A stretch of 39,429 bases of DNA, from contig JBHIAE010000026.1 of NCBI GenBank assembly GCA_046758445.1, positions 1 to 39,429 on the forward strand, written 5' to 3'. The notes beneath the pieces are model-generated. The model was not told the DNA's origin and ran no database searches. It saw nothing but the letters and a program-made list of their open reading frames with translations. Shown one piece after another: positions 14,090 to 39,220 of this stretch. Both the position numbers and the translations under genes were made by a program. The first letter of the stretch is position 1. Every line of letters begins with the position of its first letter. The DNA is from Candidatus Thorarchaeota archaeon. GTDB taxonomy: Archaea; Asgardarchaeota; Thorarchaeia; Thorarchaeales; Thorarchaeaceae.

Positions 14090-14622
14090 CCACGGAGCTC
14101 GTTGACCCCTCAGATTGGGCGGATGTGACAAAGCAGATAGATGGTGAGTTTGGTGACGGAATCACAAAGTCGCTGCTTGGAGATTGTGCACCAATCTCCA
14201 TGAAAAGAGGTGAGGCAACATCATTCTACATCGTTCCCATGGAATGGATCAATAGAATCGGTGACTATGAACAATATGAGATTCAGTCTATGGGAGAACG
14301 TTTGGGTGACTTAGTAAGAGGGAGGTTCAGGTTCAGCCTTCAGATTTTGGACTCCCTGGTGGATCTCACAGACAGAGTGATCGTAGTTTCCGGCAAGGGG
14401 GCGGAGGCCTTCACCTACGGCCGAAGCATTCTCAAAGAATCAGTGTTCGATCTTGACTCTAGATTGAAGAGAGGGCAAAGGGTTCTCGTCCTGAATAAGG
14501 ACCGTGAGTGTATTGGACTAGCTGTTTTGTCTGTTGATGGGTCCAAGCTCAATCGACTAGCTAAGGAGAAGCTCGTTGCCAAGAACCTCGTTGACATTGG
14601 TGCCTATGTGAGAGGCGCTTAG
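14086..14622 (+). CDS. Nip7-like (UPF0113) PUA domain ribosome biogenesis protein
   Basis: AEAFTYGRSILKES and KNLVDIGAYVR resemble Nip7; ATGA overlap with the Nop2-like gene. Confidence 0.75.
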   Translation: MTTELVDPSDWADVTKQIDGEFGDGITKSLLGDCAPISMKRGEATSFYIVPMEWINRIGDYEQYEIQSMGERLGDLVRGRFRFSLQILDSLVDLTDRVIVVSGKGAEAFTYGRSILKESVFDLDSRLKRGQRVLVLNKDRECIGLAVLSVDGSKLNRLAKEKLVAKNLVDIGAYVRGA

Positions 14623-15368
14623 ACGAACATATCACTCGACCGGTCCGAGGACTCGATTGACTGACGCATCTTCTCAAGGCGTTCAATCTCGCGTGATTCC
14701 TCCAGGAGCTGTTCAACGTTTGCCTCTACCCCATACATCTCGTTAATCTTCTCCAGCATGGTGGCCGCCGACTTCGGATCCGGTCTACCGCGTGTGGCAT
14801 AGGTCAAGAGACCCAAGGCAGCTTGATCACGCATCTCCAATTCTGCTAGTAGAAGCGCAAGAGGGCCAGCCACAAATAGCCCCTCTTCAAGGAGAGGAAC
14901 AGACCATTTGTCCAAGCGTGGCGCGAAAGCGGTTGTAGGAACACATCGCATCTCGTCTTCTCCCTCTTTGAAACTGGCATCAAGACCTCCCAAAAGCAAT
15001 GCCTCATCGAACTTGTTCTTCGCAATCCATTCTGCCAGCCGGTCAATCCACCCCCATTGTTCAGAGCTATGGGGCTGAAAGCGTGGCACAAGGAAGACCA
15101 TCTTCTTTTCCGCGTACCAGTATATCTCGAATGGGAGCACCAGTCTTTCATTCTCCATTGAAACAAAGAGGGGAAGCATGTCGCTCTTGATGAAGCCAAC
15201 ACGTTCTGCATTGAGAGCTCTTGTTAGGTGCGCTGTGCTGAGAAAACCAACCTCACCCAGCCCGTGAAAACCGCAGACAAAGGTCGAATCAGGCTCGACC
15301 TTGAAGCCCTTCTTCACTATTATCTCAAAAGTCGATTCTCTTGTTGCGACAAACGCCATTACATTCAT
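14619..15368 (-). CDS. PAC2 family proteasome assembly chaperone
   Basis: GFHGLGEVGFL, LLGG, GPLALLL, PDPKSAA, VEQLLEES motifs. Confidence 0.9.
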   Translation of the reverse strand: MNVMAFVATRESTFEIIVKKGFKVEPDSTFVCGFHGLGEVGFLSTAHLTRALNAERVGFIKSDMLPLFVSMENERLVLPFEIYWYAEKKMVFLVPRFQPHSSEQWGWIDRLAEWIAKNKFDEALLLGGLDASFKEGEDEMRCVPTTAFAPRLDKWSVPLLEEGLFVAGPLALLLAELEMRDQAALGLLTYATRGRPDPKSAATMLEKINEMYGVEANVEQLLEESREIERLEKMRQSIESSDRSSDMFV

Positions 15369-15642
15369 ACCTCAGTTCGGTAGCCGAAACTCAGAGGAGC
15401 AGTTCCTTGTACGCGTGTTAATGACTGCAATCTGCCTATTACTCTATGTATGTGTCACATATGATACGGTTTGGTGGATTCCTGTCGCGAAAACCGTGAA
15501 GAACCGACTTCGCCAGATTGCAGAACGCTACATATACTGATTCTTCTCAGGATTTGTAGCTCTTCTTAACAGGAAAACTAATAGGATAAGGTAATGGTTC
15601 ATAGAATGAACGCGTATCTAAATCGGCGGGGTAGAATGCAAA

Positions 15643-17862
15643 TTGAGCACGCTTAGAGAGCTTGAGTTGGCACAGGTTGCACCACGTCTGCTTGAGCTTC
15701 TAAGACGACAGGGTTTTGGCACACTTACAGCATTCCAGGCCGACTCAGTGAACGAGGGAATCATGAGAGACGAGAGCCAGATACTGGTGACTAACGATTA
15801 CGACGAGGCATACGTGGTAGGTGAGATTGCAGTTCTAAACAAGGTAGCGTCGGACTTCCGTGCAAAAGTACTAGTCCTTTGTCCAAACCCACATCATGCT
15901 GAGAGGAGGTATCAGTCACTTAGTCAGAAATGCAGACGCATGGGAATTGAAGCTACAGAGATCATTCGAGAAAGGACTGCCGTCAAAGGTGACTGGGCTA
16001 ACGGTCGAGTTGTTGTTTCTACGTATCGTGCCATGGATGTTGCCGTCAGAGCACATCCAGAACTGCTTGAGAGTGTTGAGTGTGTCTTGATCGACCGCCT
16101 GGACCTAATTGGCCAGCCAGGACTGGGTGTCAGACTTGAAAGAGTGATAGTTTCGCTGATGGGATTTGCCGATCCTATACAGTACATTGCCATCTGTCCG
16201 CCAGTTGCAGACGTTCCTGAGTTGTCACATTGGCTGAATGCCCGGGCGGTTGAAGACAAGAAAGCCGAAGTAAAGATGATCTTCAGTGTGAGGGCATTTG
16301 ATAGTGTAAACGAGTCATTGGCAGACCTAACCGAGTTCGTTCATTACCGCCGCGGCCAAGTAATGATTCTCTGTGCCAACATACCTGCCAGCGAGGACTT
16401 AGCCAGACGACTTGCAGGACTAACTGAAGAAGAGCAAGACGTGACCCTTGACCTTAGGCTTGTTCCGGAGCACAAAGAGGACTTGCTCGAGTTGGCCAGA
16501 AACGTCAAGCAGTCCTACGCCGAGTGTGACATGACATCGCTGCTGGGAGCTGCCATATCGAGAGGTGTAGCATTCCTCCACGAAGGCGTTTCGAGAACCC
16601 AGAGGAGAAGAATCTCAAACGCATGGGAAGACGGAATCATCCCTGTTGCTGTGATGCCTACTCGTTTTGCGATTGCAAGTGGACTAAGAGCCACTGTCGT
16701 CTTCCTGTTGGGTGTGTTCATGCAAGAATTAGGAAAGGAGCTGACACAGGAGGATAGTGTGACCATGCTGTCCGAGTGGCAGCTGAACGACGTGCTTCAG
16801 TCTGCGGGAAGAAGAGGATTGGATAGAGAAGCATTTGGGATAGTTGTAGTGGATAACGAACAAGAACGAACTAGGGTGATGGCCCAGTACTTTGACAAAG
16901 ACCCTGAAGGGAACCTCTCTCTTAGACAAGCAGAGGTGGACAGCGTGATGGATGACCCGGACAATATCCAAGATCTTGTTCTGGGACAGATATGCGGCCG
17001 CTCAAGAGAAGAAACTGACCCCTACTCAATAATCGATCGGACTTACTGGGCGACTAGCAAAAGAACGACGACCATCCCACCTGACGGTTCACGTACACGC
17101 GACGATGCATCTGTGAAACAGCTAGTTACACTCAGGAGTACTAAGTCGACGGAGAAGCGTGCCCAAGAGATACCTGATGAGAGCGTCCGACTCGTTTCAC
17201 TAAACCCTTCCAAGATTGAAGGACTAGTGCATAGCGGAAGTAGGGAGATGTGGCATTATGTATCGCTCAAATCAGCAGACGGAGTGTCATGTTCTTGCGA
17301 GTCATGGAAGTATCAGGGAATCCGAAGACATAGGCTCTGCAAACATCTTGTGAAGTTCACCAAGTATGCTCTTCAACAGGAGAAGACCAAACCCTACGCA
17401 CCAAGTGTGATTGAACAGTCCTTACGTGGGCTTGAAACCATTGGTGAATTGGAGAAGGACGGGCTAGTACGATATGAAGACAAGAAACACAGCTGTACCG
17501 AGCTGGGTGAAGCGGTGACCTTACTAGGCGTACCCGTACGCGACGCAAAGAAAGTGATGGATGCAATAGACCAAGGGAAGGCTGATCTCAAGAGAGTCCT
17601 TCTTGGTGTGTCCAAAGCCAGAGGCAATCTTCCTAAAGGTGTGCTCGCTCGAGTTCTTGATTCTCTGCCCGCAGATACTATAGATAGCCTAGTATGCAAG
17701 GATATTGATCTCCCGGGAATAGTTGAGAATTGTGTTGGCGACTTGGACTACACCAATTTGGTTCTGCAAAGGCTGATGAAGGACAGGCGAAGGGCAAAGA
17801 TGAAACGAGAGAGTGTCGCGCTTGAGAAGAGATTCCTGACGCTGCTCAAAGCGAGCAGGTAA
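15643..17862 (+). CDS. Inactive Hel308/Ski2-like SF2 helicase homolog with SWIM zinc finger
   Basis: Q motif GFGTLTAFQ, ELSHWLNA, GVAFLHEGV and SAGR show the Ski2-like fold; Walker A/B degenerate; CSCESW...LCKHL SWIM motif; TTG start. Confidence 0.8.
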   Translation: MSTLRELELAQVAPRLLELLRRQGFGTLTAFQADSVNEGIMRDESQILVTNDYDEAYVVGEIAVLNKVASDFRAKVLVLCPNPHHAERRYQSLSQKCRRMGIEATEIIRERTAVKGDWANGRVVVSTYRAMDVAVRAHPELLESVECVLIDRLDLIGQPGLGVRLERVIVSLMGFADPIQYIAICPPVADVPELSHWLNARAVEDKKAEVKMIFSVRAFDSVNESLADLTEFVHYRRGQVMILCANIPASEDLARRLAGLTEEEQDVTLDLRLVPEHKEDLLELARNVKQSYAECDMTSLLGAAISRGVAFLHEGVSRTQRRRISNAWEDGIIPVAVMPTRFAIASGLRATVVFLLGVFMQELGKELTQEDSVTMLSEWQLNDVLQSAGRRGLDREAFGIVVVDNEQERTRVMAQYFDKDPEGNLSLRQAEVDSVMDDPDNIQDLVLGQICGRSREETDPYSIIDRTYWATSKRTTTIPPDGSRTRDDASVKQLVTLRSTKSTEKRAQEIPDESVRLVSLNPSKIEGLVHSGSREMWHYVSLKSADGVSCSCESWKYQGIRRHRLCKHLVKFTKYALQQEKTKPYAPSVIEQSLRGLETIGELEKDGLVRYEDKKHSCTELGEAVTLLGVPVRDAKKVMDAIDQGKADLKRVLLGVSKARGNLPKGVLARVLDSLPADTIDSLVCKDIDLPGIVENCVGDLDYTNLVLQRLMKDRRRAKMKRESVALEKRFLTLLKASR

Positions 17863-22370: not shown

Positions 22371-22586
22371 ATGCCGAAACAGATCTATGATGTAGAGAAG
22401 TTCCTCGAGATGAGTGAGGACGCCGAGGAGTGCCGAGTCAAACGTGGTAGTGATCAAGTCAAGCTGAAACTCCGTACGAAGCGATATCTCTACACCATCA
22501 TTCTCGAGCCCCAAGAGGCTGAGAATGTCCTACAGCAAGTGAAATGCCAGATAGTTGAGGCCCGCCCAGAGAAAGAAGAGGACTAG
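22371..22586 (+). CDS. rpl38e: Ribosomal protein eL38
   Basis: MPKQIYDVEKFL...VKLKLRTKRYLYT matches the eL38 pattern MPxxIxxIKxFL...KFKVRxxRYLYT. Confidence 0.88.
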   Translation: MPKQIYDVEKFLEMSEDAEECRVKRGSDQVKLKLRTKRYLYTIILEPQEAENVLQQVKCQIVEARPEKEED

Positions 22587-23848
22587 ATCTCTACTGTTTC
22601 GTTCACTTCTGGTACGTGCGCTTTCCTGCCTTTCTTCTCCAGAGTTTCTGCAAGCGCATCGCAGGACTCCGACTCTCCGTGTACAACGTAGAACTCCGGG
22701 TTTCCTGGAATTCTTTCAAGAAGGTTCAGCAATCCTATCGAGTCTGAATGTGATGACAGATGGTGCATGTGCACATCTGCAGTTACATCGAGTATTCGGC
22801 TTCCGACTTGCACCTTGCGTGTAGCCAAGAGCTCCGCACCCGGAGTACCTGGAATCTGATAACTCACCAAGATGATTGAGTTCTCGGGATTATCATAGAG
22901 CATCTTGAAGTAGAGGTGTGATGCTCCTCCCTTCAACATTCCAGCAGGAGAGATGATTATCCCACCGTTGTTTGCAGCCTTTGTGCGGTCTTTGTTGTCG
23001 TGAATCACTCGGGTTCTGCTGACCGCACGGCTGAATGACTGTGGACTTTGTAGATACTGGGGATGTCTGACAAGGATCTCATTTACTTTCCTAGCCATCC
23101 CGTCCACATAGATTGGATACTTCTGTGGGATTTCGTGGCGTTCCAGAATGCACATTATCTCTTGGCTACGACCCACTGCGAACGCGGGGATTAGAACCGT
23201 CCCTCCTCGCTCTACTGTTTCAATCACTGTTTGAACCAGTCCCTCTTCAATCTCGGCCCTCTCAGGATTCAATCGACGTGCATAGGTACTCTCGGTTACG
23301 ACCACGTCATGCTTTGGGAGGTTCTTCCTGGCTCCAGGGTTAAGCTGGGACTCTGTGGCATTGAAGTCGCCGGTGAAGAGCACTCTCTTTCCATCGACTC
23401 TCAGCGAAACCATTGAGCTGCCTGGAATGTGACCTGCGTTGAAAAGAGTCATCTCAATACGGCGGCCGAGTGGCAGAGTTTCCTCATACGATGTTGTTTG
23501 ACACTGTCTTCTCACTAGTGGAATGTCATTTCTATTGAACGGAAGCCTTCCTTTTGAGATGTTGTACATGTCTCGAAGGAGTAGTATGGTCAGGTCTCTA
23601 GTGGCAGGAGTGCAGAATAGAGAGGCGTCTGTCTGAGAAAGAACACGCGGGACGCCACCAGAATGATCCAGATGGGCATGGGTAAGCGCGATTCCTTGAA
23701 TATCGTCAAGAGGAACTAGATCCGGAAACTTCGGAGGTTCTACAAGCTTTGCGCCGTGGTCAACGAGCACGCTCTCGTCCTTCTCCTCTAGAAAGAAACC
23801 TGCCCGTCCTATCTCTCTACATGAACCCAAGAATGTGAGTTGTGTCAT
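22583..23848 (-). CDS. Beta-CASP metallo-beta-lactamase ribonuclease lacking KH domains (aCPSF2-type)
   Basis: THAHLDHSG, AGHIPGS, FTGD, ESTY, PAFAVGRSQE, SSHSD, VHGE. Confidence 0.92.
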   Translation of the reverse strand: MTQLTFLGSCREIGRAGFFLEEKDESVLVDHGAKLVEPPKFPDLVPLDDIQGIALTHAHLDHSGGVPRVLSQTDASLFCTPATRDLTILLLRDMYNISKGRLPFNRNDIPLVRRQCQTTSYEETLPLGRRIEMTLFNAGHIPGSSMVSLRVDGKRVLFTGDFNATESQLNPGARKNLPKHDVVVTESTYARRLNPERAEIEEGLVQTVIETVERGGTVLIPAFAVGRSQEIMCILERHEIPQKYPIYVDGMARKVNEILVRHPQYLQSPQSFSRAVSRTRVIHDNKDRTKAANNGGIIISPAGMLKGGASHLYFKMLYDNPENSIILVSYQIPGTPGAELLATRKVQVGSRILDVTADVHMHHLSSHSDSIGLLNLLERIPGNPEFYVVHGESESCDALAETLEKKGRKAHVPEVNETVEI

Positions 23849-26825: not shown

Positions 26826-28040
26826 ATGCCTAGAAGAGTCCATGATGTAGCCATAGTTGGAGGAGGTCCAACAGGCCTGATCACTGCACATGACATAGCA
26901 GAACAAGGCCACGATGTAGTTGTGCTGGAAGAACATCCCACAGTAGGAGAGCCCGATCACTGTGCCGGGCTTCTCAGTGTGTCAGGACTCGCCTCACTGG
27001 GGCTTCGGCCGCCGAGGGAAGTCATTCAGAATCGCGTATCAGGAGCTAGGATCTATTCACCATCAGGGCATTCTGTTCTTGTTGAAAGGGGAAGGCGCGA
27101 GGCACAAGTCATAGACAGAACAAGATTCGATAGATGGCTGGCAGAGAGAGCCATAGACGCAGGGGCCTCCGTTCTCACAGGAACGAAGGCAATGGGAATC
27201 AATTGTCCTGAGGGGGAAATCTGTTCTGTGATCTTGCAGAAGGGTGATGAGGACCATGCACTAGACTCGCAGATTGTTGTCGATGCAGAGGGCACTCGAT
27301 GTCAGTTGTCAAAGGCTGTCGGACTACCAACCGTCCCGAGAGGCAGTAAATACCCCGCATATCAGTATGAATTGAGTGGAGTGGATATGGACGAGGACAT
27401 AGTCGAGATGTACTACGGACGACGCACTGCCCCGGGGTTCTTCGCATGGATCATTCCACTAGGCGGGAAGAGAGCAAGAGTGGGACTTGCGGCAAGAGAT
27501 CGTGCAAAGGTGAGACTTGAGGCCGCAATGCGATATCATCCTGTCATGAATAGGAGGCTGAAACATGCCTCTGTCGAACGCGGATTTGGAGGGGTCGTAC
27601 TATCCGGACTGCCTATCAAGAGGACCGTCAAAGGCAGGTTTCTGGTAGTAGGAGATGCAGGCGGGATTGTGAAGCCAACCACGGGAGGAGGAGTCATCAT
27701 GGGAGGTACTGCCGCGAGAGTCGCGGGTAGAGTGATTTCCAATGCTCTAAGCAGGGAGAATCTAAAAGATACGGACATCCAGCTGTACGAATCGGGTTGG
27801 AGATCTCTGCTTCTACGAGAACTGCGTGCAATGTACTTCACTCAAAGGGTGATTTCCAGCCTTTCTGACAGAGGCCTTGACACTCTCATCAAGGACGCCG
27901 AGCAATTCGACCTCGTCGAAACTGTAAGGAGAGAGGGCGATATGGACTTACAGAGACGAGTGATACTCCGCCTCCTCGTCAACCCATTCACAATTCTGGC
28001 AGGACTCAGGGCAGTTAGATACCTCAGCCCTCTGTTCTAG
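26826..28040 (+). CDS. Geranylgeranyl reductase family FAD-dependent oxidoreductase
   Basis: VAIVGGGPTG, HCAG, IDRTRFD, GFFAWIIP, VGDAGGIVKPTTGGG. Confidence 0.92.
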   Translation: MPRRVHDVAIVGGGPTGLITAHDIAEQGHDVVVLEEHPTVGEPDHCAGLLSVSGLASLGLRPPREVIQNRVSGARIYSPSGHSVLVERGRREAQVIDRTRFDRWLAERAIDAGASVLTGTKAMGINCPEGEICSVILQKGDEDHALDSQIVVDAEGTRCQLSKAVGLPTVPRGSKYPAYQYELSGVDMDEDIVEMYYGRRTAPGFFAWIIPLGGKRARVGLAARDRAKVRLEAAMRYHPVMNRRLKHASVERGFGGVVLSGLPIKRTVKGRFLVVGDAGGIVKPTTGGGVIMGGTAARVAGRVISNALSRENLKDTDIQLYESGWRSLLLRELRAMYFTQRVISSLSDRGLDTLIKDAEQFDLVETVRREGDMDLQRRVILRLLVNPFTILAGLRAVRYLSPLF

Positions 28041-28090
28041 GCACATCTTTATGAGCGCAGTTCTTCTCGACTGACTGACAGAGGTCCAAT

Positions 28091-29461
28091 TTGATGGGTA
28101 GCAATGATGAGAACTACATTCTAGGCACAGCCAGGAAAGTGCTGGAAACGCAGCCAATGTGCGATCGGTGTCTGGGCCGACAATTCGCATGGCTCAGCAC
28201 TGACACCTCAAACGAAGAGAGAGGGCGCTCAATCAAGTTGACTCTATCGATGAAGGCTCACAATGAAATAAAGGAAGGTAAGAAGGAAAACGGAACACAA
28301 CTCATAGCCCTCTTGGCTGGCAACGGGATGTTCGGACCAGCGCAGACTCTTGCGAAGAGAGCCTCAATTGATTTTCCCGTTGAGAAATCCTGCTACTTGT
28401 GTTCAGTGGACAACGGCTCGTTGTTCAATAGGTTGGACAATATCGCGGAAGAGGCAGTTGCTGCTGTAGAAGGCATTGAATTCGATTCATTCTTGGTGGG
28501 AAGTGTTCCGACGCCTAAGTTCTCTGAGCGTGAAGACGAGATTAGGAGCGCACTGAAGATACTACACGGTGAAACACTGAAGGCCGATTTCAACAGAGAG
28601 CTGGGAAAGCGGCTGCAGAGCCTCTTTGACAAGCCTGTCGAATTCGATAATCCCGACATTGTGATTATACATGACATGGTCGAAAACAGGATCAAGGTGA
28701 GGGTCAATCCCCTATTCATCTCCGGGAGATACAGGAAACTGTTGCGAGGAGTCCCTCAGAGTCGTTGGGACTGTAGATCTTGTAAAGGAAAGGGTTGTGA
28801 AGAGTGCGGTGGCACTGGAAGGAAGTATCCCGATTCCATATCAGAGTACGTAGGCATTCCGGCCCAAGATGTGACTGGTGGTACAAAGTTCAAGTTTCAT
28901 GCAGCAGGGAGGGAAGACATCGATGTTCTGATGCTGGGAACGGGTCGACCCTTTGTTGTAGAGGTTTCGGAGCCAAAGATACGAAACCCTGATCTCAAGA
29001 AGCTCGCAAAGCGTATCAGAAAAGACTCAGGGAAGAAGCTGGAGGTTCTTGAATTGGGGCTGTCCAATAGGAAGAGAGCCCAGGCACTGAAGGATGAAGC
29101 ATCCGAGAATGTGAAAGATTATGGAGCAATTATCAGAACCCAAGAGGAAGTCACGACAGAAGACCTCAGGCGAGTGTGCGAAGAGTTCGAAAACGTGGAA
29201 ATCAATCAGAGAACTCCAAAACGTGTTGCACACCGGAGAAGCGACCTAGTAAGAACAAAGCGAATCATAGAGATACGGCTTGAGAAGAAGAGTAGTCACA
29301 CTCTGAAGGGCTTCCTCAAAGTCCAAGGCGGGACCTACGTCAAGGAACTAGTTTCTGGAGACGACGGCCGAACCACACCATCATTGTCTGAAAGACTTGG
29401 CACAGCCTGCGAGTGCCTTGAACTCGATGTTTTGGAGATTCACGACGGAAACAGACCATAA
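28091..29461 (+). CDS. pus10: tRNA pseudouridine(54/55) synthase Pus10
   Basis: CDRCLGRQF, GRYRK, AGREDIDV, QRTPKRV, GGTYVKE. Confidence 0.97.
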   Translation: MMGSNDENYILGTARKVLETQPMCDRCLGRQFAWLSTDTSNEERGRSIKLTLSMKAHNEIKEGKKENGTQLIALLAGNGMFGPAQTLAKRASIDFPVEKSCYLCSVDNGSLFNRLDNIAEEAVAAVEGIEFDSFLVGSVPTPKFSEREDEIRSALKILHGETLKADFNRELGKRLQSLFDKPVEFDNPDIVIIHDMVENRIKVRVNPLFISGRYRKLLRGVPQSRWDCRSCKGKGCEECGGTGRKYPDSISEYVGIPAQDVTGGTKFKFHAAGREDIDVLMLGTGRPFVVEVSEPKIRNPDLKKLAKRIRKDSGKKLEVLELGLSNRKRAQALKDEASENVKDYGAIIRTQEEVTTEDLRRVCEEFENVEINQRTPKRVAHRRSDLVRTKRIIEIRLEKKSSHTLKGFLKVQGGTYVKELVSGDDGRTTPSLSERLGTACECLELDVLEIHDGNRP

Positions 29462-29554
29462 TCCTTAAGTGGCGACCCTAGAGGGGATGCTGGACCTCGG
29501 GTACCCAGTAGGCTTTAGGTAGGTCGAGGTACAAGTGTCAATAGATGATGCCCT

Positions 29555-29851
29555 ATGGTTAAGAAGAGTCATGGTTACCGTGCCCGGACGCGTAGTCTGA
29601 TGAGGAAGAAGGTGCGGCAACGTGGGATGAGCTCTCTTAGTAGGGTCCTCGTTGACTATGAGGTGGGCCAACGAGTAGATATTGTCATTGATTCCAGTGT
29701 ACACAAGGGTATGCCACACCGGCGATACCATGGTAGAACTGGAGTAGTGACTGGAAAGAGAGGTCGGGGGGTCGTAATCGATGTCAAATTGGGCAAGGCT
29801 TCCAAGACGATAATTGTGAGACCCGACCACCTGAAACCAAGCAGAGGCTGA
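29555..29851 (+). CDS. rpl21e: 50S ribosomal protein eL21
   Basis: SHGYRARTR, HKGMPHRRYHGRTG, RPDHL. Confidence 0.98.
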   Translation: MVKKSHGYRARTRSLMRKKVRQRGMSSLSRVLVDYEVGQRVDIVIDSSVHKGMPHRRYHGRTGVVTGKRGRGVVIDVKLGKASKTIIVRPDHLKPSRG

Positions 29852-29859
29852 ACAAGAAG

Positions 29860-30195
29860 ATGCCGAAAGAGGTAATCAGTGAGGAGGAAACTACTCTTCC
29901 TAGAGTGAAGAAGCTGCTCTCCCAAAGAGCTAAGGATGGAGAGTTGTCATTCCAGCAGAATATCACTCTGGAACATGCCTCGGCATTCTCAAAGATGGCA
30001 CCAGCGGCTGCTGACAAACTTGTAGAACGCCTGATCAAAAACTTCGGCATCTCAAGAGCTCAGGCTGTGCAGGTTGTAAACATCGCTCCCACCACTGTGG
30101 AGGAGCTGAGAACCATTCTTGACGCTCGATCTACGAGCGTTACCGATGAACAGATTCTCGAAATTGCTGAAATTGTCAAGAAGGCAACCTCGTGA
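29860..30195 (+). CDS. rpoF: RNA polymerase subunit Rpo4 (F)
   Basis: ELSFQQ..TLEHA..FSK and VNIAPTTVEELRTIL; conserved rpl21e-rpoF-DUF655-ksgA order. Confidence 0.93.
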   Translation: MPKEVISEEETTLPRVKKLLSQRAKDGELSFQQNITLEHASAFSKMAPAAADKLVERLIKNFGISRAQAVQVVNIAPTTVEELRTILDARSTSVTDEQILEIAEIVKKATS

Positions 30196-36422: not shown

Positions 36423-36502
36423 CCAGATTCACCCTAGTTTGACCCTGCTGTAAATACTAAGAAAAGACCGAGTATTATCAAATGGGAGTAACTGTGGGGA
36501 AC

Positions 36503-36509
36503 TTTTATA
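36503..36509 (+). promoter_or_regulatory. Probable TATA box for the wHTH-helicase gene
   Basis: TTTTATA 24 nt upstream of ATG 36533; lies inside the track ORF, so the true start is probably downstream. Confidence 0.5.
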
Positions 36510-36532
36510 CCGGCTCTCGGCATCGACGAGTG

Positions 36533-39220
36533 ATGGAGATGTCGGCCCGAAGCAGGAAGGACGAGAGCCTATCAGAGCTTCAGCAGCAACTAAAGGCACT
36601 TGGTAATCGATATGCTGTGGAGATCCTTCAAGTATTGAGCCCAAAGACAGGAGAGATTATCACTAGCGTCGGATGGGATGGCATAGTTGATGGCGTACTA
36701 GAGCTCCAAGGAATGAGAAGACCTGAGAGCAGACCAGGCAATGAGAAGACTCAGGATGAGGCAGAATACGAGAAACAGCGCAAGAGGTTCGTGTCTGGTG
36801 GAACACTGTATGAAACAATGAACAAACTGATCCAGGTCGACTTTGTGACGGCTCACGGTGAGAGAGGAAGGAAGAATCGCAAGTTCACAATAACTCATGA
36901 TGGCCGTCTGGCACTTACGGCGATAGGAGGCATGCGAGGACCGACTGCCGCAGATACGGAGATTCGCAGAGCCGCTAAGACACTACTAAAGCACAAGAAC
37001 TTCACACAACTGTTGCCTGCTCAGGAGAAATTCTTGGAGGAAGTCGGGGAGGTCGAAGGGAACCTAGTGATTCAGATGCCTCCAGGATCAGGAAAGACCT
37101 TCCTTGCCATGATCGTGATTCTGATTCGTCTTCAACGAGGGATCAAATGCCTCTATTTGACACCATACACTTCGTTGAACACCCAGGTGATTGACGAGTA
37201 TGCTGAGCTTTTCGAGAAGATGGGATACGGCGTAGTTAGGCATGACGGAAGACATCGAGCTACTGAAGCCGAACTAGGGAGTTCATCTCTCGTAGTAGGT
37301 GTCTTGGAGTCTGTCCTGTCATCCGTTCTACAGAGGAAGGCCTGGACAGAAGAAATCGGCCTCGTGATAGTTGACGAACTCACAGAGCTGGACTCAGCAT
37401 TGATACGCAAAGAGCCTCAAAGTCTGGGGACAGACAGAAGCACGAAGCTGGATTGCCTCATAACCCAACTCCTGCAGAGTACTCAGATAATCACCTTGTC
37501 CTCAAGGTTCGGCCAGACAGAAGAAGTGGCAAGGTGGCTGGATGCCCAAGTGTTCCGACCAAGAGTACGACTAGCACCGGATGAATTCATTGTCACAAAG
37601 GATGATGACTTTGCTATCATTCAGAGTAGTGACGGTACACAACATGCTCGAACATCGAATGAAGACTTGCTCGATGCTATACTAGAACACATGGGTGAGT
37701 ATCAGGAGAACTCAGCTCTCATCGTCGTGGGAACACGAGATACGGCTGAGGGAATAGCATCTAATCTGGCAATGACTTACCCCAGACCTATCTCAAAGGA
37801 TATTGTATCAATGATTCTAGGCCCGGAGAAGGGATTGCCAGTCACGGCCCGACTTGAGAAGCCGCTCATAAACGGCGTGGCATTTCATCATGCAGGTCTC
37901 GACGCGGCAGTCCGCGAGAGGTTAGAGAGGAGCATAAAGATTGGTGCTGTGAAGACCGTGGTTTCTACCACCGGAATCACGTCGGGCATGAGTTTTCCAT
38001 TTGACTGTGTGATAATCTTGTTTGGTTCTGGGATGTATTTCTCTATGGCGAGATCTAGATATCTACAGATAGCCGGCCGCATTGGTGAATACTACCTGGC
38101 TCGAAATGGTGGCCGCGTGTATCTAGCGTACGATGGCCCGACCATGCAGTTTAGAAGTTTGGATGAGTTAGAAGAAGTACTACTCCATCGTCCTCTTGAG
38201 CCGCTCCGACCTGGAGAACTCCATCCTTCGCTTGTTGCAAGTCTTTTGATGAAGGAGGCAGTAAGAGGAAGGGGCTTCACTCAAGAGACTGCTGAAGCAA
38301 GATTCCTCAAGCTGGCTGAGAACACATTCAGAGGTTCGGTTGATGCCAAATACAGAGAGCACATGAAGCAGATGTTCTTGGGCCTCTTTCAGTGGTTGGT
38401 GAAGAACGCAGTTCTGGAGAGGAGTGACAGGAAATTCAGAATCAGCAAAGAGGCAAAGGCAGCAGTTTCTTCCGGTATTAACATAATCGAGTACGTTGCT
38501 ATTCAGGATTCACTCTCATCACTACAGCCCAGTTCAGATGAATCCGAGCTTGTTGATCTTCTTCTGAGATTCAGTCTGCCCCAGACTATCAGACCTAGGG
38601 CCCTGATTCCAACTGACATAGAACTGAGTCTTGCCAATCTTGACTCTCCGGATCAACGATATCGAGAGTTCAAGCATGGGCGTGACCATTTCAAGAAACT
38701 AGTACTGCAGGGTTGGTTAGATGAGATGAGCGTCAAGGACGCAATTGAGCATTCAGAGGCAATCTCAAGAGAGGCTCTTGAAGGCAGACGTCCTGTCAGC
38801 AGTGACATTGGAGAGGGGGACCTTGAGGCACTTGTAGGAATATGCAGCAACATTGCATGGAGTATCTGTGGCTTCTTGAAAGCAACGAGACGTCGGAGTC
38901 TATCTCGTCGTTTCGAAGCGTTCAGCAGACAGCTTAGGCACGGCGTCAAGATGGACCTTGCGACGACTGACCTATTTGATTTGAACATCCCCGTGAAGGA
39001 TGATGCGGCGTCAAGATGCTTGTCAAGATTAGAGGCTAGAACTCTGTTTGACAGTGGATATAAATCTGTCAACGAGATTGTAAGAAAGGATATTGATGCC
39101 AAGAAATCAGGATTCGCCAGAGACCGCTTTGCCAGAAACTCAGGACTCGAACTGGAAACAGCCAAGGAGATATACAAAGCGGCACTGAGCCATGTCAAAT
39201 CGAAGCTCGATGAGGATTAG
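36533..39220 (+). CDS. Ski2/Hel308-like SF2 helicase with N-terminal winged helix-turn-helix
   Basis: wHTH (LKALGNRYAVEIL...TLYETMNKL...FTITHDG); Q motif LLPAQ; PPGSGKT; IVDELT; GVAFHHAGL; QIAGRIG; HhH-like EARTLFDSGYKS; start 36533/36539 preferred over 36482. Confidence 0.85.
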   Translation: MEMSARSRKDESLSELQQQLKALGNRYAVEILQVLSPKTGEIITSVGWDGIVDGVLELQGMRRPESRPGNEKTQDEAEYEKQRKRFVSGGTLYETMNKLIQVDFVTAHGERGRKNRKFTITHDGRLALTAIGGMRGPTAADTEIRRAAKTLLKHKNFTQLLPAQEKFLEEVGEVEGNLVIQMPPGSGKTFLAMIVILIRLQRGIKCLYLTPYTSLNTQVIDEYAELFEKMGYGVVRHDGRHRATEAELGSSSLVVGVLESVLSSVLQRKAWTEEIGLVIVDELTELDSALIRKEPQSLGTDRSTKLDCLITQLLQSTQIITLSSRFGQTEEVARWLDAQVFRPRVRLAPDEFIVTKDDDFAIIQSSDGTQHARTSNEDLLDAILEHMGEYQENSALIVVGTRDTAEGIASNLAMTYPRPISKDIVSMILGPEKGLPVTARLEKPLINGVAFHHAGLDAAVRERLERSIKIGAVKTVVSTTGITSGMSFPFDCVIILFGSGMYFSMARSRYLQIAGRIGEYYLARNGGRVYLAYDGPTMQFRSLDELEEVLLHRPLEPLRPGELHPSLVASLLMKEAVRGRGFTQETAEARFLKLAENTFRGSVDAKYREHMKQMFLGLFQWLVKNAVLERSDRKFRISKEAKAAVSSGINIIEYVAIQDSLSSLQPSSDESELVDLLLRFSLPQTIRPRALIPTDIELSLANLDSPDQRYREFKHGRDHFKKLVLQGWLDEMSVKDAIEHSEAISREALEGRRPVSSDIGEGDLEALVGICSNIAWSICGFLKATRRRSLSRRFEAFSRQLRHGVKMDLATTDLFDLNIPVKDDAASRCLSRLEARTLFDSGYKSVNEIVRKDIDAKKSGFARDRFARNSGLELETAKEIYKAALSHVKSKLDED

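Follow-up and report, generated by a model that had tools for sequence, protein, structure and literature searches.

What is a helicase kept for once its motor has been lost? The question is raised by a gene of Candidatus Thorarchaeota archaeon (NCBI GenBank assembly GCA_046758445.1, contig JBHIAE010000026.1, positions 1 to 39,429 of the forward strand; "the window" denotes this whole stretch of 39,429 nucleotides). The gene lies at 15643–17862 on the forward (+) strand, as do all of its features given below, and its product, here called the target, has the fold of the archaeal helicase Hel308/Hjm, differing from it in that the motifs of the ATP site are replaced and in that a putative SWIM zinc finger is inserted into the winged helix. 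A SWIM finger in this place defines an Asgard-wide paralog clade of Hel308, to which the target belongs; the dead form is not alone in having the insert, only loss of the motor being specific to Thorarchaeota. The target is very probably a Thorarchaeota-specific, ATPase-dead member of this SWIM-Hel308 clade, which would work without a motor as a binding adaptor.

The Hel308-like core and its replaced motifs

The gene (the ATPase-dead SWIM-Hel308 paralog, 15643–17862) is an uninterrupted open reading frame (ORF) of 739 codons, which begins with TTG and is closed by a stop codon at 17860–17862; the starts of orthologs, be they ATG, GTG or TTG, fall at the same residue, which makes the TTG start credible. 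HMMER aligned the target to solved Hel308/Hjm chains (2zj2 with E 2e-14, as well as 2va8 and 2p6r; range 2e-14 to 1e-8). A full-length AlphaFold2 (AF2) model built from 21 orthologs (predicted local distance difference test, pLDDT, 77; predicted template modelling score, pTM, 0.77) retrieved Hel308 2va8 as the best Foldseek match (E 1.3e-23, template modelling (TM) score 0.61–0.68), followed by the helicase domain of PolQ, Brr2 and Mtr4. By Foldseek and AF2 the target thus has the RecA1-RecA2-winged helix-ratchet fold of Hel308, and the colinearity claimed by the original prediction holds. Family models recognise it poorly: the Hel308 equivalogs of NCBIfam reach 70–92 bits over residues 8–473 against cutoffs of about 900–1200, and the target is not a member of NF040935 (Hel308/Hjm equivalog; 78.9 bits, cutoff 1200), which covers residues 8–423 only. 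The Pfam scan returned nothing but a SWIM match below threshold (residues 547–570); the DEAD and Helicase_C models miss the target, yet find every intact relative. Since the same genome also encodes a canonical Hel308 with all motifs intact (633 bits), the dead protein is an extra paralog and no replacement.

Both RecA-like domains are in place, RecA1 at residues 1–205 (15643–16257; delimited by alignment, the AF2 model and 120 cluster representatives) and RecA2 at residues 206–428 (16258–16926; alignment and AF2 model), but the superfamily 2 (SF2) motifs I (GK[ST]), II (DExH), III (SAT) and VI (QxxGRAGR) are all replaced. In the HMMER alignment to Hel308/Hjm the Walker A position reads T50-N-D-Y-D-E-A-Y57 (15790–15813), the DExH position D151-R-L-D154 (16093–16104) and the SAT position C185-P-P187 (16195–16203); motif VI (residues 386–392, 16798–16818) is reduced to S-A-G-R-R, aligned as Q386-S-A-G-R-R391, with its first arginine replaced and its second retained. 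These are the four replacements that had been read from the letters at the outset, together with a Q motif and fold motifs said to remain, and both readings are borne out by the alignment: F31 Q32 of the Q motif is kept in RecA1, as is motif IVa, G308..V316 (16564–16590), although the latter reads F-L-H-E-G instead of F/Y-H-H-A-G. Among 120 cluster representatives of the dead clade the substituted residues are fixed, D52, E55, R152, D154 and P186 being present in 120/120, Y53 in 118 and A56 in 119, with C/S-P-P at the SAT position; F311, H313 and G315 of motif IVa are invariant, and the Walker B aspartate D151 and the motif VI arginine R390 are found in 113/120 and 111/120, respectively. A loop at residues 355–380 (16705–16782) occupies the position of the strand-separating β-hairpin of Hel308; its pLDDT is below 50, while G357, M360, Q361, L376, E378 and W379 are invariant, and it could be a conserved binding element which becomes ordered only on a partner.

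The C-terminal region is a shortened ratchet-like helical domain (residues 631–739, 109 residues, 17533–17859; defined by alignment, AF2 and Foldseek), within which the aromatic position of the ratchet helix (residues 691–705, 17713–17757) is kept as invariant Y703. The helix-hairpin-helix (HhH) domain 5, not evident already in the first inspection, was not found: Pfam gave no HHH match, and in the alignment with the HhH-bearing relatives P0138 and P0139 and with the Hel308 of its own genome the target ends before the HhH. Taken against archaeal Hel308/Hjm as a whole (2va8, 2zj2/2zj5/2zj8, 2p6r; NF040935), the target is alike in the colinear fold, the Q motif, motif IVa, the wing and the ratchet-helix aromatic, and differs in motifs I, II and III, half of motif VI, the SWIM insert, the short domain 4 and the missing HhH.

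The gene is conserved in spite of these changes. More than 200 protein clusters from metagenome-assembled genomes (MAGs) of Thorarchaeota are 56–93% identical to the target, nearly all of about 735–740 residues. Among 301 sampled genomes of the phylum, a single ortholog is present in 73 of the 76 genomes of the window's own family, its ORF being intact wherever the contig is complete; a scan of species-representative genomes yielded 61 loci, all of them from Thorarchaeota or Asgard MAGs, including SMTZ1-45 and AB_25. Pairwise ratios of nonsynonymous to synonymous substitution rates (dN/dS, NG86 method) are 0.06–0.12 overall, 0.09–0.16 in RecA1, 0.06–0.13 in RecA2 and 0.02–0.17 in the insert; all domains are under strong purifying selection. 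Fixed substitutions, near-universal presence in the family and a low dN/dS together argue for a maintained gene and not for decay; the original prediction of a maintained pseudo-enzyme, which recent decay with Walker motifs kept in close orthologs or a dN/dS near 1 would have contradicted, agrees with orthologs that likewise lack the Walker motifs and with a ratio of about 0.1. As for expression, no RNA run is among the sequencing runs listed as matching the gene; these are DNA runs of hydrothermal-vent metagenomes, which may be the source sample, and four further runs with small shares.

The SWIM insert and the clade that carries it

The winged helix of the target is split. Its first half (residues 429–470, 16927–17052; AF2 models and structural alignment) comprises helices 439–451 and 460–467, its second half (residues 586–630, 17398–17532; AF2 and alignment) the recognition helix 586–605 and the wing hairpin 609–618, and between helices 2 and 3 (460–467 and 586–605 in the AF2 models) lies an insert of 115 residues (471–585, 17053–17397; AF2 models, structural alignment, conservation). 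In the models the insert contains, besides a variable linker, a pair of helices, a sheet of four strands and the SWIM zinc finger, followed by the helix belonging to it. The finger has the pattern C550-x-C552-x13-C566-x-H568 (17290–17346), exactly where it had been seen at first, and the insert precedes the wing, as had also been said. The four ligands are invariant in 33/33 diverse family members and in 120/120 representatives of the dead clade, in which the whole SWIM loop (550–569) is nearly invariant; their invariance across the 33 family members puts the finger far beyond chance. Pfam SWIM (PF04434, cutoff 19.6 bits) scores 16.4 bits by hmmscan of the protein and 20.5 bits in a six-frame search of the genome, and the relatives P0139 (27.7 bits) and P0135 (21.5 bits) pass the cutoff. 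From its sequence, then, the finger at 550–568 may be regarded as a putative zinc-binding SWIM module.

The structural evidence comes from a second AF2 model, of residues 429–640, made from an alignment of 33 diverse relatives (pLDDT 84). In exhaustive structural alignment of this fragment the winged helices of DHX37 (Z 7.5) and Hel308 (Z 7.4) rank on top, and dozens of MarR/PadR winged helices span both halves of its winged helix at Z 5–6. The winged helix is therefore complete, with the SWIM module as a loop protruding from it. The best non-helicase match of the insert is ZSWIM8 (9rwz_M; Z 7.3, root-mean-square deviation 3.4, 96 residues), which aligns with the insert only (residues 486–597). 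In a protein atlas, residues 486–601 are covered by SWIM and SNF2_assoc clusters; these are leads only. Proteins of the SWIM family (PF04434: ZSWIM8, Shu2/SWS1, bacterial SNF2-associated proteins) have CxCxnCxH in a β-β-α context as the target has, but its finger, unlike theirs, sits inside the winged helix of a Hel308 fold. For an accessory module within the winged helix of a Ski2-like helicase there is a precedent in the arch of Mtr4/Ski2 (PMC10946056); this arch, however, consists of a helical stalk and a KOW barrel and has no zinc finger.

How far the architecture extends was seen when 1.8 billion representatives were searched exhaustively by HMMER with the target. The search returned one close cluster and then a tier of full-length proteins of 17–27% identity, the alignments of which run through the SWIM region; in these a CxC...CxH finger occupies the same columns of the alignment, and Walker A, DExH/Q, SAT and GRAGRPG are intact. 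A SWIM-type finger is present in 43 of about 130 long matches. The named members come from Lokiarchaeia, Helarchaeota, Heimdallarchaeota, Baldrarchaeia, Odinarchaeia, Hodarchaeota and Ranarchaeia, and include one of the cultured Promethearchaeum syntrophicum (QEE16306.1 / WP_147663182.1); they are annotated just as "DEAD/DEAH box helicase". Pfam finds DEAD and Helicase_C in all of them and SWIM in some; domain 4 and the HhH are detected in the Heimdall and Baldr forms, while most intact SWIM paralogs are without HhH. With these intact Asgard proteins the target has in common the position of the finger and its side of the tree; it differs in the motifs, which are kept there and lost here.

Trees were computed with IQ-TREE (LG+C20 with posterior mean site frequencies (PMSF); Shimodaira–Hasegawa-like approximate likelihood ratio test (SH-aLRT) support) and, as a second tree, with FastTree. 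A branch of 100% SH-aLRT support splits all SWIM-bearing proteins from canonical Hel308, which is consistent with a single origin of the insert. The dead clade is itself fully supported (100%); its stem measures about 2.3 substitutions per site, and its closest companions in the trees are the Odin, Hod and Ran forms (SH-aLRT 90, FastTree 99), a grouping for which long-branch attraction is possible. By E-value, too, the dead clade has its nearest relatives in these forms (P0130, P0132, P0135, P0151; 5e-59 to 1e-38), which have in common with it the SWIM-loop signature C-x-C-E-[HYS]-[WF]-[KR]-[FY]. In them the DExH histidine, SAT and the second arginine of motif VI are gone, and GK[ST] of Walker A and mostly the acidic pair of motif II persist; judged from their sequences, they seem to be partway through the erosion of the motor. 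The forms would make up a series which starts with a Hel308 that has both SWIM and HhH (Heimdall, Baldr) and leads, by loss of the HhH and then by decay of the coupling motifs (Odin, Hod, Ran), to complete loss of the ATP site (Thor). Two of the loci (L034, L037) are of this Odin/Hod/Ran type, which is the sole SWIM helicase found in the complete 1.4-Mb genome G001.

Thorarchaeota also have an intact SWIM-Hel308, which belongs to another subclade and occurs in 56 of 80 Thor-family genomes (20 of the 23 high-quality ones); it is of about 735–740 residues and has Walker A, DEIQ, HHAGL and GRAGRPG (for example L033, G233:C7, ~27860–29900). Most Thor genomes therefore hold three members, namely the dead form, the intact SWIM-Hel308 and the canonical Hel308. 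In the genome of the window (92.7% complete) the queries used did not find the intact SWIM paralog, which does not show its absence, nor was it found in the nearest relative, G218 (73% complete). A recent duplication, with the dead clade as sister of the intact Thor paralog, is rejected by the approximately unbiased (AU) test (difference in log-likelihood 30.5, p 0.0076), with the reservation that the tested group was named after the tree had been seen and that long branches are involved. The dead clade may go back to an old paralogy, to fast divergence or to transfer.

The original prediction knew of no description of this architecture. Full-text literature searches gave no paper linking SWIM to Hel308/Ski2-like helicases, and a term search of a recent survey of archaeal Ski2-like proteins that includes 27 Thorarchaeota genomes (PMC10946056) brought up neither a SWIM finger nor a degenerate paralog. 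The clade is apparently undescribed, no matching paper or characterised family having turned up; what does not stand is that the insert would set this protein apart, as it is common to intact helicases throughout Asgard archaea.

Possible roles of a Hel308 fold without a motor

Helicases of the Hel308, HELQ and PolQ type control the outcome of recombination from archaea to humans, and current thinking about them stresses ATP-independent annealing and scaffolding. Because the residues of its ATP site are gone, a motor-less role is proposed for the target: it would neither bind nor hydrolyse ATP in the canonical way and would act as a static binding or adaptor protein. The remnant of the Hel308 channel would most likely hold single-stranded or branched nucleic acid by the elements retained (T127 of motif Ib, F311/H313/G315 of motif IVa, the wing and the ratchet residue Y703), and the invariant SWIM surface would be presented to a partner protein or to a second strand of nucleic acid, in DNA repair or recombination. 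The pocket that once took the nucleotide may be filled by the invariant acidic D52 and E55 along with R152. The clamp or scaffold for repair or RNA surveillance suggested at the outset, with the Shu complex as its analogy, is neither supported nor refuted by these results. That a Hel308 fold can have roles independent of ATP is plausible, because strand pairing by HELQ needs no ATP, ATPase-null HELQ annealing naked DNA (stated in a review, PMC13623763), and because motif IVa tunes annealing in Hel308 (PMC10484726).

Several observations weigh against this proposal. Binding of nucleic acid by the target would follow only from residues retained in the alignment, and among the contact motifs Ia and parts of V are changed as well; the ratchet arginine is lost and the ratchet domain shortened. 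Going by the sequence, non-canonical nucleotide binding is possible. The insert matches a solved SWIM domain only moderately well, as a Z of 7.3 is below 8 and may reflect a common arrangement, and when the 212-residue fragment was compared with the PDB by Foldseek, no match came under E 1e-3; the assignment of the insert fold consequently rests mainly on the invariant ligand pattern. Finally, no conserved neighbour points to a pathway, the whole surrounding block being collinear.

The alternative surviving best, although on balance unlikely, is that the target acts in trans as a non-catalytic regulatory partner of an active motor of the Hel308 family, either the intact SWIM-Hel308 or the canonical Hel308. 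The two would form a hetero-oligomer, comparable to Brr2, the inactive C-terminal cassette of which modulates the active N-terminal one in cis. Such motors would be at hand, given the distribution of the intact SWIM-Hel308 (56/80 family genomes) and the three family members of most Thor genomes, and the next structural matches after Hel308 are Brr2 and the helicase domain of PolQ. Brr2 is known to have an enzymatically inactive cassette (abstract of PMC8220420). By analogy, this C-terminal Ski2-like cassette would resemble the target as a catalytically dead Hel308-like unit kept for a role other than that of a motor; it is, however, fused in cis, keeps a nucleotide pocket, has the helix-loop-helix (HLH) and immunoglobulin-like (Ig) domains of the Sec63 type and has no SWIM finger. 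The target is not of the Brr2 type, being a stand-alone gene with its P-loop gone and without a Sec63 match in Pfam. Moreover, the intact SWIM paralog was found neither here (at 92.7% completeness) nor in some high-quality genomes that have the dead form, and in none of the loci examined do dead and active genes lie side by side.

A little more doubtful still is a mediator of strand annealing or recombination independent of ATP. The SWIM proteins Shu2/SWS1 partner Rad51 paralogs; by analogy the target might be a non-translocating Hel308 the SWIM finger of which contacts RadA paralogs, and the genome does encode RadA and two RadA paralogs. The annealing by ATPase-null HELQ fits this, as does the binding of HELQ to the RAD51 paralogue complex BCDX2 (PMC13623763), and so do the kept motif IVa and its invariant residues F311/H313/G315. 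Yet annealing by HELQ is assigned mainly to domains 4–5 (PMC13623763), and since domain 4 is shortened and the HhH domain 5 is missing in the target, this counts against a simple annealase; motif IVa reads F-L-H-E-G and not F/Y-H-H-A-G, and the target is not linked to the radA paralogs in the genome. A complex prediction for the winged-helix/SWIM fragment with the two RadA paralogs gave a score of 0.00 (mark 0.32), which permits no verdict and is evidence neither way.

That the target is still an ATPase or helicase, using a non-canonical nucleotide site, is very improbable: the Q-motif glutamine, D151 and R390 are indeed retained (the latter two in 113/120 and 111/120 representatives), but the Walker A lysine and the glycine-rich loop are missing, acidic D52 and E55 stand at the position of the phosphate loop, an invariant arginine replaces the catalytic glutamate, SAT has become C/S-P-P, and the Pfam DEAD and Helicase_C models that find all intact relatives pass it by. 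Hardly credible at all is a decaying gene, or else a helicase of mobile elements or defence islands like HamB of Hachiman, for which there is one weak PADLOC match (21.7 bits, about 100 residues) and against which stand a dN/dS of about 0.1 in all domains, the single copy in 73/76 family genomes, a collinear housekeeping block in 12 loci and a base composition resembling that of the remaining window; HamB itself was rejected, as the similarity is that of a generic helicase core, no HamA-like neighbour is present and the neighbours are housekeeping genes.

The motor-less adaptor is thus the reading preferred here. On this reading, a version of Hel308 without a motor has become fixed throughout one archaeal lineage, where selection on it is as strong as on an enzyme; it would be a natural separation-of-function variant whose remaining role would be an activity of the Hel308 fold that does not need ATP. 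The graded series from intact to dead motifs is a clean example of pseudo-enzyme evolution, and the presence of the clade in cultured P. syntrophicum offers a tractable entry point. It may also be speculated, although this is unlikely as it stands, that the SWIM-Hel308 clade is an unrecognised branch of repair or recombination, in which the dead Thor member would be a regulator in trans, either a Brr2-like pseudo-subunit or a Shu-like coupler to RadA paralogs. Asgard archaea being the closest archaeal relatives of eukaryotes, the clade would, if this is true, add a repair/recombination branch there.

Chromosomal surroundings

Divergent from the target, across an intergenic region of 274 bp, lies a gene of the PAC2 family (proteasome assembly chaperone 2-like; in the stretch 14619–15642), an arrangement which is kept in all Thor loci examined, as is the whole surrounding block. 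Further upstream are genes for HD and CYTH proteins, a pyridoxal phosphate (PLP) enzyme (PALP), an RsmB/F methyltransferase and a PUA protein; downstream follow the β and then the α subunit of succinyl-CoA ligase (SucC-SucD). The block HD-CYTH-PALP-RsmB/F-PUA-PAC2-target-SucC-SucD is collinear in 12/12 other Thor loci, representing ten genera besides the window's own, and none of its genes stands beside the distant SWIM helicases in the loci fetched. The neighbourhood was considered as a clue to function and rejected, because collinearity of the entire block reflects collinearity of the genomes and not linkage; the context shows merely a stable chromosomal resident.

Two other genes of the window deserve mention. 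On the reverse strand, 22583–23848 encodes a ribonuclease of 421 residues with metallo-β-lactamase, β-CASP and RMMBL domains, which is aCPSF2- or RNase J-like and without KH domains; of the 12 Thor loci fetched, nine have it within the collinear block, and of the other three two end at a contig edge, the third (L026) giving no match with a flank of 6 kb on that side. Some 19 kb downstream of the target, 36482–39220 on the forward strand encodes a second non-canonical SF2 helicase, of 912 residues, which scores 65 bits with Pfam DEAD, 22.8 bits with Helicase_C (under the cutoff) and 89 bits with the Hel308 model in the genome search.

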